Shown: positions 1,254 to 30,500 of the stretch, in pieces | Layout: each line of letters starts with the position of its first letter | Position numbering within the stretch: position 1 is the first letter of the stretch | Program-made: the position numbers and the translations under genes | The notes under the pieces: model-generated | Told to the model about the DNA's origin: nothing | Databases searched by the model: none | Seen by the model: the letters and a program-made list of their open reading frames with translations, nothing else | NCBI GenBank assembly: GCA_003695605.1 | Contig: RFIK01000006.1 | Location: 1-30,500 of the forward strand | From: Chlorobiota bacterium | GTDB lineage: Bacteria > Bacteroidota > Ignavibacteria > Kapaibacteriales > NICIL-2 | Direction: 5' to 3' | Length of the DNA: 30,500 nucleotides

Positions 1254-2783
1254 TTACTTTCTGATGCTGCCAGTCAGCTTGTATGCCCCTATCCAAAGGT
1301 AATTGGAACTATCCAATACTGTTCCGATCAAGATTCCATCACGAAAATCATGGGGAATGAAATGATTCCCCGCATACAAATCATGCGTGAAGACTGGGCT
1401 GCCGTCCGGCCAACAACAGTGGAGATACTCACGATGCTGAACGCGTGCATCGCTAAAGTCAACTACGCCTTCGGGGTACTCGGTATTCCGATACGGCAAG
1501 AGGAACATCCCGGTTGTCTTGTCGTAGAAAATCTTGCGAAAAGCTATATTTGATACCAACCCATCAAGGGGTGTTCCATCCTTGATAGTTAGTTTTCCGT
1601 TTCTCTCTGGCAGATCCCAAGATGGAACTCGATAGGTATCGGAAAAATGTAGTGGAATGACTTTTATGAGGTTGCCCCTGCGATCCCAGACTCGGAGCGA
1701 CCGACCAAACTGAAAAAGGGATACTGTTGTGCTATCACCATAACAGCCAAAGATAGCACCAAGCCATCGGGAAACTCGGTACTGATAGTAAATGCTATCA
1801 ATGCCACGTCCAATTGCAACAGTTTTACCTGTTATGTCTCCAACCCAGATTGTTGTGTCCTCTGGTGTCAGCAAACGGTGGGGAGACGTTCCACTTCTTG
1901 AAATGTATATTTTCCCATCGCAGTAGCCGCATTCTATGTCGAGGGGTAGCTGGCGCGATAGATAGCTTACATTGTGTAGCGTTGGCTCACCGATCGTGTA
2001 GAGAGCAAGATAGTGGGGATATTCGAAGGTGGATCCACAGATGAGGAGCGACTTTCCGGGTGTATCCCAATCTATTGAACCAATACCCATACAGTGCAAC
2101 GAATCCAATCGAATTGGCGTCCGTGTTCGAATGGTTCCGGTGCTATCAATAATCAACAGCTGGCATTGCGTTCCATTGACGAGGTAAAAACTCTTCCTCT
2201 CGGGACCAACAAGCATTAGTCGTGACCATCCCGACTTTAGCATGTGTCCCGCCGTATCTCGTACAGGAAGTTTCCATAGCAATTCGAAGTACCGCTCAAG
2301 ATCTGTTCGTTCGATCACAACAGTGTTCGCCAGTGAGTCCCGGAGTGAGCGTAGAGTCGTTCCAACAGTTTGTGACGTAGGAGATTCGATTGCTAAGATT
2401 TTACCAACCCTATCAAGAATCAAAATGACTGGGAGCGTTCGGATTTTGTAAAAATTCCGATAGATTTGAAACTCATCTCCCACAATAGGGCACTCAATCT
2501 TTTCCTCTCTGCGAAATGCTTCTGCATCTGATTGAGAAAATCCATCGAGGAAGACAACGTACTCAACCGGATAATTACGCAGCTGTTCGTAGAATTGCTC
2601 AATATTCATCATGCAGATGACACAATTCGAGCGATCGGTGAATACATAGACTCGCATTGCGTAGTCGCTCTGCGGCTTGAGCGGACGCACAGTGTCGCCA
2701 ACGTAAAAATCAGTATAGCGAAGGCTTTCTTGCGAGAAAAGCAACACTCGGACGACCAGGAGGATAGCAAGGATGTGTTTCAT
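1254..2783 (-). CDS. Secreted protein: N-terminal thioredoxin/redoxin (TlpA/AhpC-TSA-like) domain with CxxC, plus a C-terminal beta-rich, probably beta-propeller, region (509 aa)
   Basis: Start moved to MKHILAILL (ATG at 2783), a signal-peptide-like stretch. CVIC at 2613-2624; cis-Pro loop RTLPVILILDRVGKI. The remainder has short beta-strand repeats (LLIIDSTGTI, LRVWDRRGNLIKVI). The propeller call is an inference. Confidence 0.8.
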   Translation of the reverse strand: MKHILAILLVVRVLLFSQESLRYTDFYVGDTVRPLKPQSDYAMRVYVFTDRSNCVICMMNIEQFYEQLRNYPVEYVVFLDGFSQSDAEAFRREEKIECPIVGDEFQIYRNFYKIRTLPVILILDRVGKILAIESPTSQTVGTTLRSLRDSLANTVVIERTDLERYFELLWKLPVRDTAGHMLKSGWSRLMLVGPERKSFYLVNGTQCQLLIIDSTGTIRTRTPIRLDSLHCMGIGSIDWDTPGKSLLICGSTFEYPHYLALYTIGEPTLHNVSYLSRQLPLDIECGYCDGKIYISRSGTSPHRLLTPEDTTIWVGDITGKTVAIGRGIDSIYYQYRVSRWLGAIFGCYGDSTTVSLFQFGRSLRVWDRRGNLIKVIPLHFSDTYRVPSWDLPERNGKLTIKDGTPLDGLVSNIAFRKIFYDKTTGMFLLPYRNTEYPEGVVDFSDARVQHREYLHCCWPDGSPVFTHDLYAGNHFIPHDFRDGILIGTVLDSSNYLWIGAYKLTGSIRK

Positions 2784-2822
2784 TGTAAAACCTGCTGGGG
2801 CATTGCACACTATTCGAAAAGA

Positions 2823-2848
2823 GGAGGGGAGAGATGCCTCTCCCCTCC
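2823..2848 (-). terminator. Intercistronic GC-rich hairpin (partial terminator or mRNA stabiliser)
   Basis: Perfect 11-bp stem GGAGGGGAGAG-N4-CTCTCCCCTCC, followed on the minus strand by TCTTTT, between the small secreted gene and the redoxin gene. Confidence 0.7.
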
Positions 2849-2862
2849 AGGGCCGCGAACCG

Positions 2863-3330
2863 TTATGGTGTGGGGACGAAGACCGTGTATTTGCCGGTGT
2901 CATCAGTCACAATCCCGCCGAGATTGATTGTGATACCGACGAGCTGAGGGTATTCGGTGCACTCGACAATTTCGATTTCCTCAGTCGGTGTAAAGTAGTA
3001 GTTCCGCCCGTCGCGAGTGAATGTGTTCCAGTTACCCTGGCTGTCCTTTACAGACAAGGTGACTTGATCGAGCTGGAGCTCGATTGCGTAGCCGTAAGGT
3101 GGAACAGGGGTGACTTTCCCTTTGACCAGACTTGTGCATGGTTCAACGATGCAATCCACACCCCCATCATAACAACCGTGGTGACGATCGCTCCATGCAT
3201 AGATCCCTGTACCAAGAGGCACTTTCCGATGCACCCAGCAGTCCGTCTCAGCAGATGACAACGTTGTAAGCAGATGCAGCCATGATGTGGCAACAAGAGC
3301 GTACATCGCTAATCCAATGTTAGTTTTCAT
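2863..3330 (-). CDS. Small secreted Cys-containing hypothetical protein (155 aa)
   Basis: Hydrophobic signal peptide ending LSSA; five Cys in the mature part (four clustered near its N-terminus); beta-rich; hairpin directly after the stop; co-oriented with the redoxin gene. Confidence 0.8.
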   Translation of the reverse strand: MKTNIGLAMYALVATSWLHLLTTLSSAETDCWVHRKVPLGTGIYAWSDRHHGCYDGGVDCIVEPCTSLVKGKVTPVPPYGYAIELQLDQVTLSVKDSQGNWNTFTRDGRNYYFTPTEEIEIVECTEYPQLVGITINLGGIVTDDTGKYTVFVPTP

Positions 3331-26433: not shown

Positions 26434-27186
26434 ATGCGAGCAGTACTTTGGTTTTGCATGACAGTTGCTCTGGCTGTGCTATGGATAACCGAACCAGCCA
26501 TCGCTGGGCACAGCACCAGGAAAAAAGGAGCAAAGCGCCGTGCTACTGCGCGACTACAGCGAAATACTCAGGGCAAGCAACTTGCACTCGATCTGCTCTC
26601 GACGCAGGCATCGCCGGCGCTGCAAACTCTTGCCGGACTCCATGAGGGGCAAGTCCTCGATGGCGATGATGCCGACGAGGTTGCTCGCGAAGACGATGTC
26701 CCAGTGGACATCGCGACAATTCGCACGCTCTGGATGGCATACGTGGACGGCGAGCAACCACCCTCTGGACTTTCCCAGCGCCAGGTGATGGAATTCATCA
26801 TGGATTGGCTTGGGCGGCCATACCGCTTCGGCGGTAGTAGCGCCGATGGAATCGATTGCTCAGCATTCATTCAAACACTCTTCCACACGTGTGCAGCTGC
26901 GCTTCTCCCAAGAACAGCACAGGAGCAATATGCCTACGGACAACAAGTGCAGCATATCGAAGACCTTCAGTTCGGAGACCTGGTGTTCTTCCACACTCGC
27001 AGCCATGCGTGGGTATCGCATGTGGGCATTTACCTGGGGGATAAACTTTTTGCGCACGCAAGCTCACGGTATGGGGTTACGATTTCCTCGTTGGAGAGCA
27101 CGTACTACAACAAACGGTTCATCAGTGGGCGGCGGCTTACGCTCAGCGACCTCCAGCAACTGGCGCTCCGCTCAGAAGCGCGGTAG
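26434..27186 (+). CDS. NlpC/P60 (C40) cell-wall peptidase with signal peptide
   Basis: PYRFGG...GIDCSAF, GDLVFF, SHVGIYLG, FAHASS (Cys-His-His triad); RBS GGAGG before ATG 26434. Confidence 0.93.
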   Translation: MRAVLWFCMTVALAVLWITEPAIAGHSTRKKGAKRRATARLQRNTQGKQLALDLLSTQASPALQTLAGLHEGQVLDGDDADEVAREDDVPVDIATIRTLWMAYVDGEQPPSGLSQRQVMEFIMDWLGRPYRFGGSSADGIDCSAFIQTLFHTCAAALLPRTAQEQYAYGQQVQHIEDLQFGDLVFFHTRSHAWVSHVGIYLGDKLFAHASSRYGVTISSLESTYYNKRFISGRRLTLSDLQQLALRSEAR

Positions 27187-27250
27187 TTTGGCCTGATGCC
27201 GTAATGCGTTCTATTCGCTGTGAGTGAATGCTCAACTAGCAGCATCAATG

Positions 27251-27880
27251 CTACGCACCGTCAGAATTGCCCCAGCGGGGGGGGGCGGAGACTCCAAGCA
27301 TTTTCCGGAGTTTTGCGATTGCGCGATAGTAGCGTTGGCGGACGGCGTCAACCTTCATTCCGACATGCACTGCGATTTCGGCAAAACTTTTGCCGCTGCA
27401 GTACTCTCGTATGATGTACTGATCGCATTGGGAAAGCTTGCCGAGCGCTTCAGAGATCAAGAGGATGTCCGTGGTGACTTCTGCGTTTGCCGAGCTTGTG
27501 AGTTCAGCGTTGAAGTCTGTCTCGTAGTGAACACGTCGGTAGTGAGGTGTTACTTGATTCGACAGATATGAGCGTGCTGCCTTGATGCAATCGGAAACAA
27601 GAAGATGCAAAAGAGGGCAGGAGCAGTCAGAGCACTGGATGCAACCATGTAAGCAAGTATGGCGCGGGCATGCGATCGCGGGATTTTGTGCCATCGAGCG
27701 CGTTGCGTTCTCGATCCCGACGCAGACGCCTAATCGAACCCAATCTTCGGGGAGTACGTGGTGCCACAAGATTCGCCAGGAGTTGTGGACGACGCCGAAG
27801 ATCCTCCGGTAGTGTTCAGGAGACATCATCAGGCGGTAAAGTGCTTCCCACCGGGCGCGTGTGCAGTTGTCATCACTCAT
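27251..27880 (-). CDS. Divergent ECF-like sigma-70 factor with an internal Cys/His-rich insert (209 aa)
   Basis: Clear region 4 (ALGKLSQCDQYII...GKSFAEIAVHVGMKVDAVRQRYYRAIAKLRKML). Region 2 is only weakly recognisable (PEDWV; LLHLLVSDCIKAARSYL) and flanks CPRHTCLHGCIQCSDCSC. Confidence 0.75.
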   Translation of the reverse strand: MSDDNCTRARWEALYRLMMSPEHYRRIFGVVHNSWRILWHHVLPEDWVRLGVCVGIENATRSMAQNPAIACPRHTCLHGCIQCSDCSCPLLHLLVSDCIKAARSYLSNQVTPHYRRVHYETDFNAELTSSANAEVTTDILLISEALGKLSQCDQYIIREYCSGKSFAEIAVHVGMKVDAVRQRYYRAIAKLRKMLGVSAPPRWGNSDGA

Positions 27881-28229
27881 GACATGGTACTCCGACGATC
27901 ATCCTGCATGACGAAAATACACAACGCACTCTGAGCTATCAATAGCGTATTCCAGCAGGAAAAATTTTTCCATCAGCGTGTCACAACTTGCCGATTTCGA
28001 GTACATGGGATATGGAAGCGCGCAACCATTTGTGCGCTCAGTTTGGCAAAGCGAACCGACTATGGCAAATTGCCGCCATCTTCGTGCTGTGGCAGGGCTG
28101 CATGCACGAGTCCATTGGGCAGAATGTGCGGCGCTGGCTGATGGTGCTTGTGTGTAGGAGTTTCTGCCAGCCGCACCAGCACGGAGAGGCGGGAAAATCA
28201 GGATATTTCACTGCTATTTTGAGACAACA

Positions 28230-28943
28230 ATGTTGCGTAAACTGTGTGTTGCTGCACTTGTTCTTGCATCCGTCGTATCCTCTCAGGCTGGCGAGACAGG
28301 TGCGAAGGCAATTCTCCAAAACGAGAACAACTGCCGGCCTCCGACAATTATCACACTTCCGTGTCTCGGGGGTTGTTACGAATGGTCGGTTCAAGAGGAC
28401 CGCAATTGTGATGGCGTGTACGACTGGATTACAGTGAAGCGATGTGATGGCTCGCTCTGTTCTCAACCGATTCAGTCCGTTGCATATCCGATTGGGAATA
28501 TTGCTGATGGAGTCTTCAGTATCGCGTTTACTTCTTGGCAATGTGCAGACGGACGCTGGCAGTGGCAGCTTGATCTCTTCGACCGTGATTCTTCATTACT
28601 GGCATCGGTGATACAGAGGTGCGGAGATTCTACACCGCAGGTGGTGTACCCTGCACCACCGGTGATAGCTCAGAGCAGCAACGAAGCTGAAACTTCCCAA
28701 GCGCGCATTTTCCCAAATCCGACTACTGGAGAACTTTTGATCACGAATGCAGAAGCGGTGGTAAAGATTGATGTGTATGACAGCAAAGGGCGAAGGATCG
28801 AGACACCGGCCCTCGAGGCACGGAAGGATGGTGAAACGTATGTACTACGACTCTCTGATAGCCTGCCATCGGGTGTTTATCTGCTCGCGATCCATCGAGC
28901 AGGACAAAAGCCAGAATTCGTTCCGTTTGTTATGTACCACTAA
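28230..28943 (+). CDS. Secreted Cys-rich protein with T9SS type A sorting domain (paralog A, 237 aa)
   Basis: Signal peptide; 8 Cys in the N-terminal domain; CTD IFPNPTTGEL...VYDSKGRRI...LPSGVYLL. Confidence 0.9.
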   Translation: MLRKLCVAALVLASVVSSQAGETGAKAILQNENNCRPPTIITLPCLGGCYEWSVQEDRNCDGVYDWITVKRCDGSLCSQPIQSVAYPIGNIADGVFSIAFTSWQCADGRWQWQLDLFDRDSSLLASVIQRCGDSTPQVVYPAPPVIAQSSNEAETSQARIFPNPTTGELLITNAEAVVKIDVYDSKGRRIETPALEARKDGETYVLRLSDSLPSGVYLLAIHRAGQKPEFVPFVMYH

Positions 28944-28956
28944 CTTGGCATTCAAA

Positions 28957-29697
28957 ATGAAACTCTGGTCAAGAGCCATTGCACTTGCGATGATTGCTAC
29001 TGTTCTTGTTGCTGAACCAGCAAAGCCACAGATGTACCAATGGCAGTGCCCCGGACCAAATGGCGGGTGGGGCTGGCAGGTCCTTGAAGATCGTGATGGG
29101 GATGGACGGTATGACTGGGAAACGCGGCATGAGTGTGACGGTTCGATCTGCGAAGGCCCACTTGGAGTTAGCAACAAACGACAAATTGGGTACTTATCAG
29201 GTTGGGTGTCACTCTCGTTTACGCAGCTTGTTTGCGAGGAATCTGTTCCCAATGGGTGGTCCCTCCGTTTATTCGACACCAACGGTCTTCTCATGGGGAC
29301 AGTTGAGCATTCCTGTTCCGATACAACTGCGAAGCTCATTCTCCCTGAAGTTGTGCCGGAGTCCCTCAAAGGAGCAGACTTTCGAAAACGCCAAGCGCTT
29401 GGCCGATACGCATTCGTATTCGAGAATCTCAGCGCGACATGGAATGCTGCTTCTTCGACGCTTGATGTAACATGCCGTGTCAAAATCCCTCTTCCCTTGA
29501 CACTTCGCGTATTGGAGCGGAATCGTGGGCAAGAGGATCGAGTAATTGCAACGGTCGTTACTCCGCAGCCTGTGGTAGGAGAACGTGTCATTCACGTCCC
29601 AGTACCGCCACTGCATTCTGGGATGTACTACTGGCAAGTGATGGCACCGAATGGATCAGCTGTGACAAGTGTATTTACGATCGAGTCGTTGCGATAA
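28957..29697 (+). CDS. Secreted Cys-rich protein with a divergent T9SS-like CTD (paralog B, 246 aa)
   Basis: Start moved to MKLWSRAIALAM (ATG 28957). The N-terminal domain aligns with paralog A; the C-terminus has LHSGMYYWQV. Confidence 0.85.
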   Translation: MKLWSRAIALAMIATVLVAEPAKPQMYQWQCPGPNGGWGWQVLEDRDGDGRYDWETRHECDGSICEGPLGVSNKRQIGYLSGWVSLSFTQLVCEESVPNGWSLRLFDTNGLLMGTVEHSCSDTTAKLILPEVVPESLKGADFRKRQALGRYAFVFENLSATWNAASSTLDVTCRVKIPLPLTLRVLERNRGQEDRVIATVVTPQPVVGERVIHVPVPPLHSGMYYWQVMAPNGSAVTSVFTIESLR

Positions 29698-29734
29698 ACG
29701 GTTCGGAGAGCCGTGCAAAGTTGTTTCACTAATA

Positions 29735-30050
29735 ATGGTGATTGCCATGTTCATCTTGCTCATTGCTCTCATCTTCTCCTTGTGGCAGTCTGAGTTGAGC
29801 AGAGCCACGCAAATCAACTAACCCCGCGGGCTATGGCTGTTGGGCAGCACCGCCTCATGAACCGGGCTTAGTCAAGTGTGAAGGGAATTGTTCGAGAATC
29901 TGTGCTCTCTGTGAACTCGGTGTGTACGGTGGTGACTATCCAGACCGTCTCGTTCTCTTTGATTCGAATGGTGATCCATCATTTGAATCGCAGTGCCGGT
30001 ACATCATGCCAGCATCCGATGGGAACGGGTTCTTCGTTGAATTGCCTTGA
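29735..30050 (+). pseudogene. Frameshifted small secreted Cys-rich protein (signal peptide and mature domain in different frames)
   Basis: ATG 29735 opens MVIAMFILLIALIFSLWQSELSRATQIN* (stop 29819-29821). The +1 frame is open from 29799 to 30050 with six Cys and no upstream start codon; a hairpin follows its stop. Not in the supplied ORF track. Confidence 0.6.
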
Positions 30051-30055
30051 GTAGC

Positions 30056-30078
30056 AGGGGAGCCGATACGGCTCCCCT
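30056..30078 (+). terminator. Intercistronic GC-rich hairpin
   Basis: Perfect 10-bp stem AGGGGAGCCG-ATA-CGGCTCCCCT, 5 nt after TGA 30050. Confidence 0.7.
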
Positions 30079-30111
30079 CTACCTTTCTTGTCCACTACAT
30101 AGGATAGGTCA

Positions 30112-30500
30112 ATGTACAACCAAATGAATGTGCTGAGCGTAGCTTTTACTCTGTCTTTGCTCTGTTCTTCCGCAGCAGCCGTTGAGCACATCTACACTGA
30201 TTCACTCAGGAATAGCATCGTAATATCAAGTCCTATCATGAAGTCGTTTGTAAGTGGCCATGGTACTGCCGCGCCGATTCATGTTGTGTTCTTTATTTCA
30301 CGCCCCCGTGCGTATATCTATGGCGAAGCCTTAGTTGCGAAAACAATTAGCCAGCTGCAGACGTTGGGATTTGATGGTACAATTACCGTCGTGGTTCGTG
30401 GGAGGAGATACTATGCAGACATTGAGTATGTAAGAAGGCAACGCTGGCTGGCGAGAGTGTACATTGATACGTCGGGAAGGCTGCTGGAAGCTGCGAGGAT
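30112..30500 (+). CDS. Secreted protein with a redoxin-like N-terminal fold lacking CxxC; truncated by window end
   Basis: Translated by hand, open to 30500: MYNQMNVLSVAFTLSLLCSSAAA...IHVVFFISRPRAYIYGEALVAKTISQLQTLGFDGTITVVVRGRRYYADIEYVRRQRWLARVYIDTSGRLLEAAR. The strand-helix-strand-helix pattern suggests a thioredoxin fold (inference). Confidence 0.7.
   Translation, partial: MYNQMNVLSVAFTLSLLCSSAAAVEHIYTDSLRNSIVISSPIMKSFVSGHGTAAPIHVVFFISRPRAYIYGEALVAKTISQLQTLGFDGTITVVVRGRRYYADIEYVRRQRWLARVYIDTSGRLLEAAR

Follow-up and report, generated by a model that had tools for sequence, protein, structure and literature searches.

The prfB gene (RF2) is expressed through a programmed +1 frameshift. In E. 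coli, short ribosomal hops carry translation over stop codons between matched codons, and gene 60 of T4 is translated by bypassing. Frameshift pseudogene alleles that segregate among intact copies are a further point of comparison. The locus analyzed here lies at the end of a 30,500-nt stretch of DNA, the window, taken from a Chlorobiota bacterium (contig RFIK01000006.1, positions 1 to 30,500), and it has some likeness to each of these systems. As in prfB, an in-frame stop is followed by a C at a point where the frame could be regained by a +1 shift; as in the E. coli hops and T4 gene 60, candidate take-off and landing codons (AAC/AAC) bracket the stop. With segregating pseudogene alleles it has in common one small indel, an early stop, intact close relatives and a lack of later substitutions; nothing essential differs in this case, and the gene here is also unannotated. 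The locus very probably belongs with the latter: it would be a genuine gene for a Sec-exported, beta-rich and disulfide-bearing protein of ~105 aa, recently inactivated by a real 2-bp deletion (Table 1).

Table 1. Features of the locus and its immediate surroundings, in window coordinates.
Feature	Coordinates	Strand	Remarks
Two co-oriented paralogous genes	28230..29697	+	28230-28943 (T9SS sorting tail); 28957-29697
First 21 codons, ancestral frame	29735..29797	+	hydrophobic, signal-peptide-like N-terminus MVIAMFILLIALIFSLWQSEL
2-bp 'CA' deletion site	29797^29798	+	codon 22; from DNA alignments with intact alleles
Out-of-frame tail SRATQIN	29798..29821	+	premature stop TAA 29819-29821; includes the AAC-T-AAC string
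Stranded gene remainder, ancestral frame	29799..30050	+	mature beta-rich domain, ends TGA 30048-30050
G+C-rich hairpin directly 3' of the stop	30051..30082	+	terminator-like, without a clean U-tract
Start of partner gene	30112..30498	+	truncated where both window and contig end; ~610-aa exported protein

The initial annotation had proposed that a gene missed by the ORF track lies hidden here, with its signal peptide and its mature domain in two different frames, and both frames are as it described them. The frame that opens at ATG 29735 has 28 codons (product MVIAMFILLIALIFSLWQSELSRATQIN) and is terminated by the premature TAA. In the +1 frame, a TGA at 29796-29798 precedes an open stretch that runs from 29799 to the final TGA, the earliest ATG, GTG or TTG within it being a GTG at 29922. 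When the bases AACT are taken as a single step, the two halves join into a fused product of 104 aa, matching the ~104 aa anticipated for a repaired frame; intact alleles encode 105 aa. The proposed pairing of a signal-like N-terminal segment with a Cys-containing mature domain was also supported: the remainder of the gene encodes six Cys, a YPD motif and a C-terminal LP. The gene is unannotated because neither half passes the ORF-length filter.

The fused 104-aa product was searched against 41 related genomes, a check that had been suggested along with the gene itself. Among them G006, a complete genome in a single contig from the genus of the window's organism, has an intact ortholog; it is an uninterrupted protein of 105 aa, 92% identical to the fused product, and aligns over residues 1-104 with no stop (E = 2.3e-65). 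The same gene is uninterrupted in G006 and in three independent assemblies. Between the window and G006 there are seven substitutions in the gene, of which six are synonymous in the repaired frame. Codons 1-21 differ by A4T only, and downstream of the break all five substitutions are synonymous in the repaired frame (0/5 and 1/5, respectively, in the other two frames). The coding signal of the proposed frame is thus far beyond chance, and these data show that purifying selection has kept acting on the repaired frame until now. Together, the intact ortholog and the synonymous substitutions establish that the gene split over two frames is real. We also considered GTG 29669 as an upstream start and rejected it, all five substitutions in the extension being non-synonymous in the DNA alignment with G006; in the overlap with the upstream gene (29669-29697), the two substitutions relative to G006 are synonymous in the frame of the upstream gene.

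DNA alignments with the intact alleles locate the lesion precisely. Intact sequences read GAGTTG-CA-AGCAGAG, in which CAA encodes Gln22, and the window reads GAGTTG-AGCAGAG. The frameshift called by the initial annotation therefore stands as a break in the frame; its nature and position do not, since the change is a 2-bp deletion rather than a one-base insertion within 29799-29819. The deletion lies just outside that interval, ~20 nt upstream of AAC-T-AAC, and itself created the TGA at 29796-29798 that closes frame B. The bases now read as the out-of-frame tail encode ...KSTN... in intact alleles. The 2-bp gap is the sole indel in the DNA alignment of the window with G006, a single 2-nt gap is the only difference between the window and L027, and only this one indel separates the window from three intact sequences over 0.8-1.3 kb.

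The closest intact allele, that of ERZ795043, is the same as the window at all 316 nt apart from the 'CA' and thus 100% identical over the stranded remainder. As no further change has accumulated relative to this allele, the break is very recent and the deletion allele very young. Recent pseudogenisation, one of the explanations put forward initially, was the right one. Translation from ATG 29735 would leave the ancestral frame within the end of the signal peptide and stop at the premature TAA after 28 residues, so that the mature domain (29799-30047) would not be made.

An assembly indel had been offered as the other simple explanation, with the 2-bp gap arising while the MAG was put together from the intact DNA of the organism. 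The window's genome is indeed a fragmented MAG (1.88 Mb in 240 contigs, 86% complete; the window is contig C116), and a second assembly from the same species group, GCA_017880035.1, has 34 gap openings in 2.2 kb, showing that artefacts occur in such material. We compared Logan contigs of four runs over 29300-30400, these being assembled contigs and not raw reads. The contigs of X1 (study P1, depth 16) and X2 (study P2, depth 19), from different studies, span the entire 1.1 kb gap-free and carry the same deletion, each with four substitutions relative to the window that are unlike between the two, although X1 or X2 might itself be the sample from which the window was assembled. The 'CA' is present behind 29797 in X3, a microbial-mat metagenome, and in X6, a metatranscriptome (RNA) library, as well as in ERZ795043 (a 332-kb contig with a coverage of about 2073) and SRR20853578. 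The site, GTTG^AGCAG, lies in no homopolymer or simple repeat, and over 0.8-1.3 kb one indel is all that the window shows against the three intact sequences. An artefact is for these reasons highly improbable. Because the deletion recurs, outside any homopolymer or repeat, in two or more further data sets put together by a different assembler, we conclude that it is a real segregating allele and not an error of this assembly. Intact and deletion alleles both come from the same kind of habitat, hot springs and microbial mats.

In a word-indexed protein search, the sole matches were the protein itself and a 69-aa fragment, P0008. The latter was considered as a second frameshifted allele and set aside as uninformative, its source being the assembly with the 34 gap openings. 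This public MAG (GCA_017880035.1; locus L026, JAEDZT010001858.1) represents a strain near-identical to that of the window, and many of the short 'genes' of L026 are indel artefacts, which calls for caution with protein databases. A separate observation concerns the distribution of strain variation. In X6, the most divergent of the runs compared, the C-terminal end of the upstream gene (29349-29611) accounts for 18 of the 25 differences from the window, and the small gene has none over its 316 nt. Strain variation has a local hot spot here, beside an unusually invariant gene; the ERZ795043 contig terminates at about 29687.

The initial annotation had also raised, as a speculative alternative, that ribosomes might hop over the stop at AAC-U-AAC. 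In this case, the frame would be restored in the seven-codon overlap (29799-29819), either by a tRNA-Asn hop from AAC 29816-29818 to AAC 29820-29822 over the U of the UAA, or through slippage by +1 at the stop codon, and the deletion allele would still yield a full-length exported protein. The geometry is indeed there: a matching AAC stands on each side of the first base of the in-frame UAA (29819-29821), and a C follows the stop. Moreover, the altered residues fall in a variable region just past the signal peptide, so that a rescued product could function, and the deletion allele is present in several data sets. Against this, the break lies upstream of the string, and AACTAAC is unchanged in every intact allele (G006, ERZ795043 and others), where it lies in frame and specifies Thr-Asn. 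Since the string predates the deletion, hopping is not what it evolved for; by our own estimate, the chance of matched codons around the TAA is ~1 in 64.

Nor were stimulatory elements of the known systems found at the junction. None of the seven overlap codons (AGC, AGA, GCC, ACG, CAA, ATC and AAC) re-pairs at +1, the sequence upstream of the junction contains no Shine-Dalgarno-like run, and RNA folding at the junction was no better than that of shuffled sequences (z = +0.5 and +1.05). The interruption is not conserved either: G006, ERZ795043, SRR20853578, X3 and X6 are intact, as are the paralogs and other members searched, and the interrupted family members seen elsewhere are only truncated calls from error-rich or variant assemblies; in a further genome of the genus, G007, the gene is lost altogether. 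The locus thus differs from prfB, with its slippery P-site codon, upstream Shine-Dalgarno-like element and conserved interruption. It also differs from T4 gene 60 and the E. coli hops, in that the string in the window arose by chance within the ancestral in-frame sequence and neither a take-off hairpin nor a nascent-peptide signal is evident. We consider a recoded product extremely unlikely. Programmed recoding is unsupported and this is instead an ordinary pseudogene, which removes a tempting claim of recoding; as far as the sequence can tell, low-level spontaneous frameshifting or hopping might still give traces of full-length protein.

The strong hairpin that had been noted immediately past the stop was confirmed, with a predicted energy of -25.4 kcal/mol (z = -4.4, 0/200 shuffles folding as well). 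It occurs once in the genome and its stem is unchanged in G006 and ERZ795043; a simple terminator scan did not call it.

The small protein belongs to a rare family of ~100-aa, probably exported beta proteins that has no name. A profile built from five members of the genus gave 21 matches among 1.84 billion (1.84e9) representatives, nearly all of 96-128 aa with a hydrophobic N-terminus, usually with K/R. A search across the taxonomic family located the small protein in 5/7 other genomes of the genus and in 0/9 genomes of three other genera. Window positions 29781-30047, read through the TGA, matched the family profile (A2) with E = 2.8e-33. In the alignment of the family (A4), Cys49 and Cys57 are invariant, a (Y/F)PD motif is present, the C-terminus is typically LP, and Cys36 and Cys88 are mostly present or absent together. 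The frame-B translation of the window has every one of the invariant columns (G45, C49, C57 and D71); what the window lacks is the uninterrupted frame of a functional member, owing to the deletion and the premature TAA. A hydrophobic N-terminal helix is present in 17/17 members of the alignment, consistent with a putative Sec-type signal peptide as judged by inspection and by the family alignment; the window ortholog is without a basic (K/R) n-region.

The AF2 model of the intact ortholog (pLDDT 82, about 90 over the mature domain) is all-beta in its mature part, with a helix at residues 2-17 followed by seven strands. A Foldseek comparison of this model with the PDB gave no match (all E > 1, TM < 0.3), and no Pfam family, NVEALA included, was found at E <= 1 for five family members.

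In G001, G002, G003, G005 and G006 (twice, in tandem), the small gene lies directly upstream of a gene for a homolog of ~600-690 aa of the partner protein, and this adjacency holds in every carrier examined. The partner in the window, as far as it can be read from 30112, is 98% identical to G006 P0012. It consists of a thioredoxin-like domain followed by a beta-propeller, modeled by AF2 with moderate confidence (pLDDT 66), and the model matches beta-propellers, NHLRC2 (6gc1) and the exported Bacteroides protein 4raa. The fold aligns with that of human NHLRC2, which combines Trx-like and NHL domains, and with the six-bladed propeller of 4raa (E about 1e-6, TM up to 0.52 by target). No CXXC is visible in the Trx-like part of the partner; a Pfam search of the partner gave no match above threshold. 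Atlas neighbours of the partner carry Redoxin/AhpC-TSA and NHL/DUF5128 domains. The gene order suggests that the small protein may act with the partner as an extracytoplasmic pair, the small protein working outside the cytoplasm together with the ~610-aa product of the next gene.

Two further pairs deserve mention. At the end of another contig of the window's genome (G000:C225:5797-6369, minus strand), we found the C-terminal end of a second large-partner paralog; this genome probably also has a tandem second small/large pair like that of G006, lost in an assembly gap. Elsewhere in the window, at 1257-3330 (minus strand), a small exported Cys protein (155 aa) is encoded together with a redoxin-propeller-like protein (549 aa), and this pair has its own hairpin at about 2823-2848. 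The 549-aa protein has a weak Thioredoxin_8 match. Homology of the 1257-3330 pair with that at 29735-30500 was considered and rejected (hhalign 1.8% for the small proteins, nothing by blastp for the large), and their resemblance is at best architectural.

The two genes upstream probably share a transcript with the small gene. They are 38% identical to each other (E = 7e-18), and the 28230-28943 gene has a Por_Secre_tail match. The initial annotation had read the LVLFDSNG segment of the small protein as an echo of these two paralogs; this did not hold up as kinship. Compared by blastp with the upstream proteins, which share an EDRxxDGxYDW domain, the small protein gave only this 8-residue match (E = 0.12 and 3.6), and hhalign of the small family against the paralog domain returned a probability of 0.3% (E = 0.2).

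Some features of this upstream region were noted in passing. The TGG at 28563-28565 of the 28230-28943 gene is TGA in its G006 ortholog (L011, about 9400), which is split into two ORFs. The T9SS-tailed gene is thus intact in the window and broken in G006, the reverse of the pattern seen for the small gene. Just before gene 28230 there is a ~260-nt non-coding element that is conserved (27965-28228, plus strand). G006 has exactly two copies of it, one before the ortholog of the 28230 gene (88%) and one before the second small-protein gene (81%); as the genes that follow these copies are unrelated, what was duplicated is a promoter or leader. RNAalifold predicted a long stem in the element (CCGCCATCTTCGTGCTG / CAGCACGGAGAGGCGG), the copies varying too little for covariation. 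The element is absent from G002 and G003, and an Rfam search over 27000-30500 gave no match.

The small gene has been lost in another way elsewhere in the genus. In G007, another complete genome of the genus, the large gene is kept and the small gene (about 350 bp) has been cleanly deleted, as shown by comparing L028 (G007:C1:2109800-2114500) with L017 from G001, a close relative; the flanks are retained. Gene loss is evidently frequent in this accessory cluster, in keeping with a recent knockout that the lineage of the window tolerated. Since hot-spring populations contain both frameshift and intact alleles, and the gene has been deleted in a sister species, the small protein would be dispensable under some conditions.

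One may ask whether such a loss was selected or even switchable, the knockout being favoured or toggled in part of the population rather than decaying neutrally, for example if the exported protein were a target or a costly shared good. At least three haplotypes or data sets, each a little different, carry the deletion, the whole gene was deleted independently in G007, and the TGG-to-TGA nonsense change in the neighbouring gene of G006 adds to the frequent inactivation in this accessory cluster. However, the site has no repeat tract that would allow reversible switching, the independent samples are few, and common descent accounts for the co-occurrence of the deletion haplotypes with no need of selection. 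We regard selected or switchable loss as very unlikely. A broader reading places the locus in an undescribed two-gene extracytoplasmic module restricted to this hot-spring genus, whose small subunit would be lost repeatedly because its loss is advantageous in part of the population, e.g. by escape from something that targets the exported protein. Repeated loss is suggested by the frameshift allele being common to several data sets, together with the clean loss in G007. In a lesser variant of the same proposal, the frameshift allele would be leaky through the AAC-to-AAC hop. We consider this module reading unlikely, and a recent inactivating deletion in a genuine gene remains our preferred explanation.

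For annotation, the recent inactivation means that ORF-length filters miss the gene, which should be recorded as a frameshifted pseudogene with its lesion at 29797^29798. For the biology, it is an example of a loss-of-function allele of very recent origin that exists side by side with intact copies in natural populations of thermophiles. More generally, the locus points to a rare, unannotated family of small, probably exported proteins that accompany a Trx-like/propeller protein.
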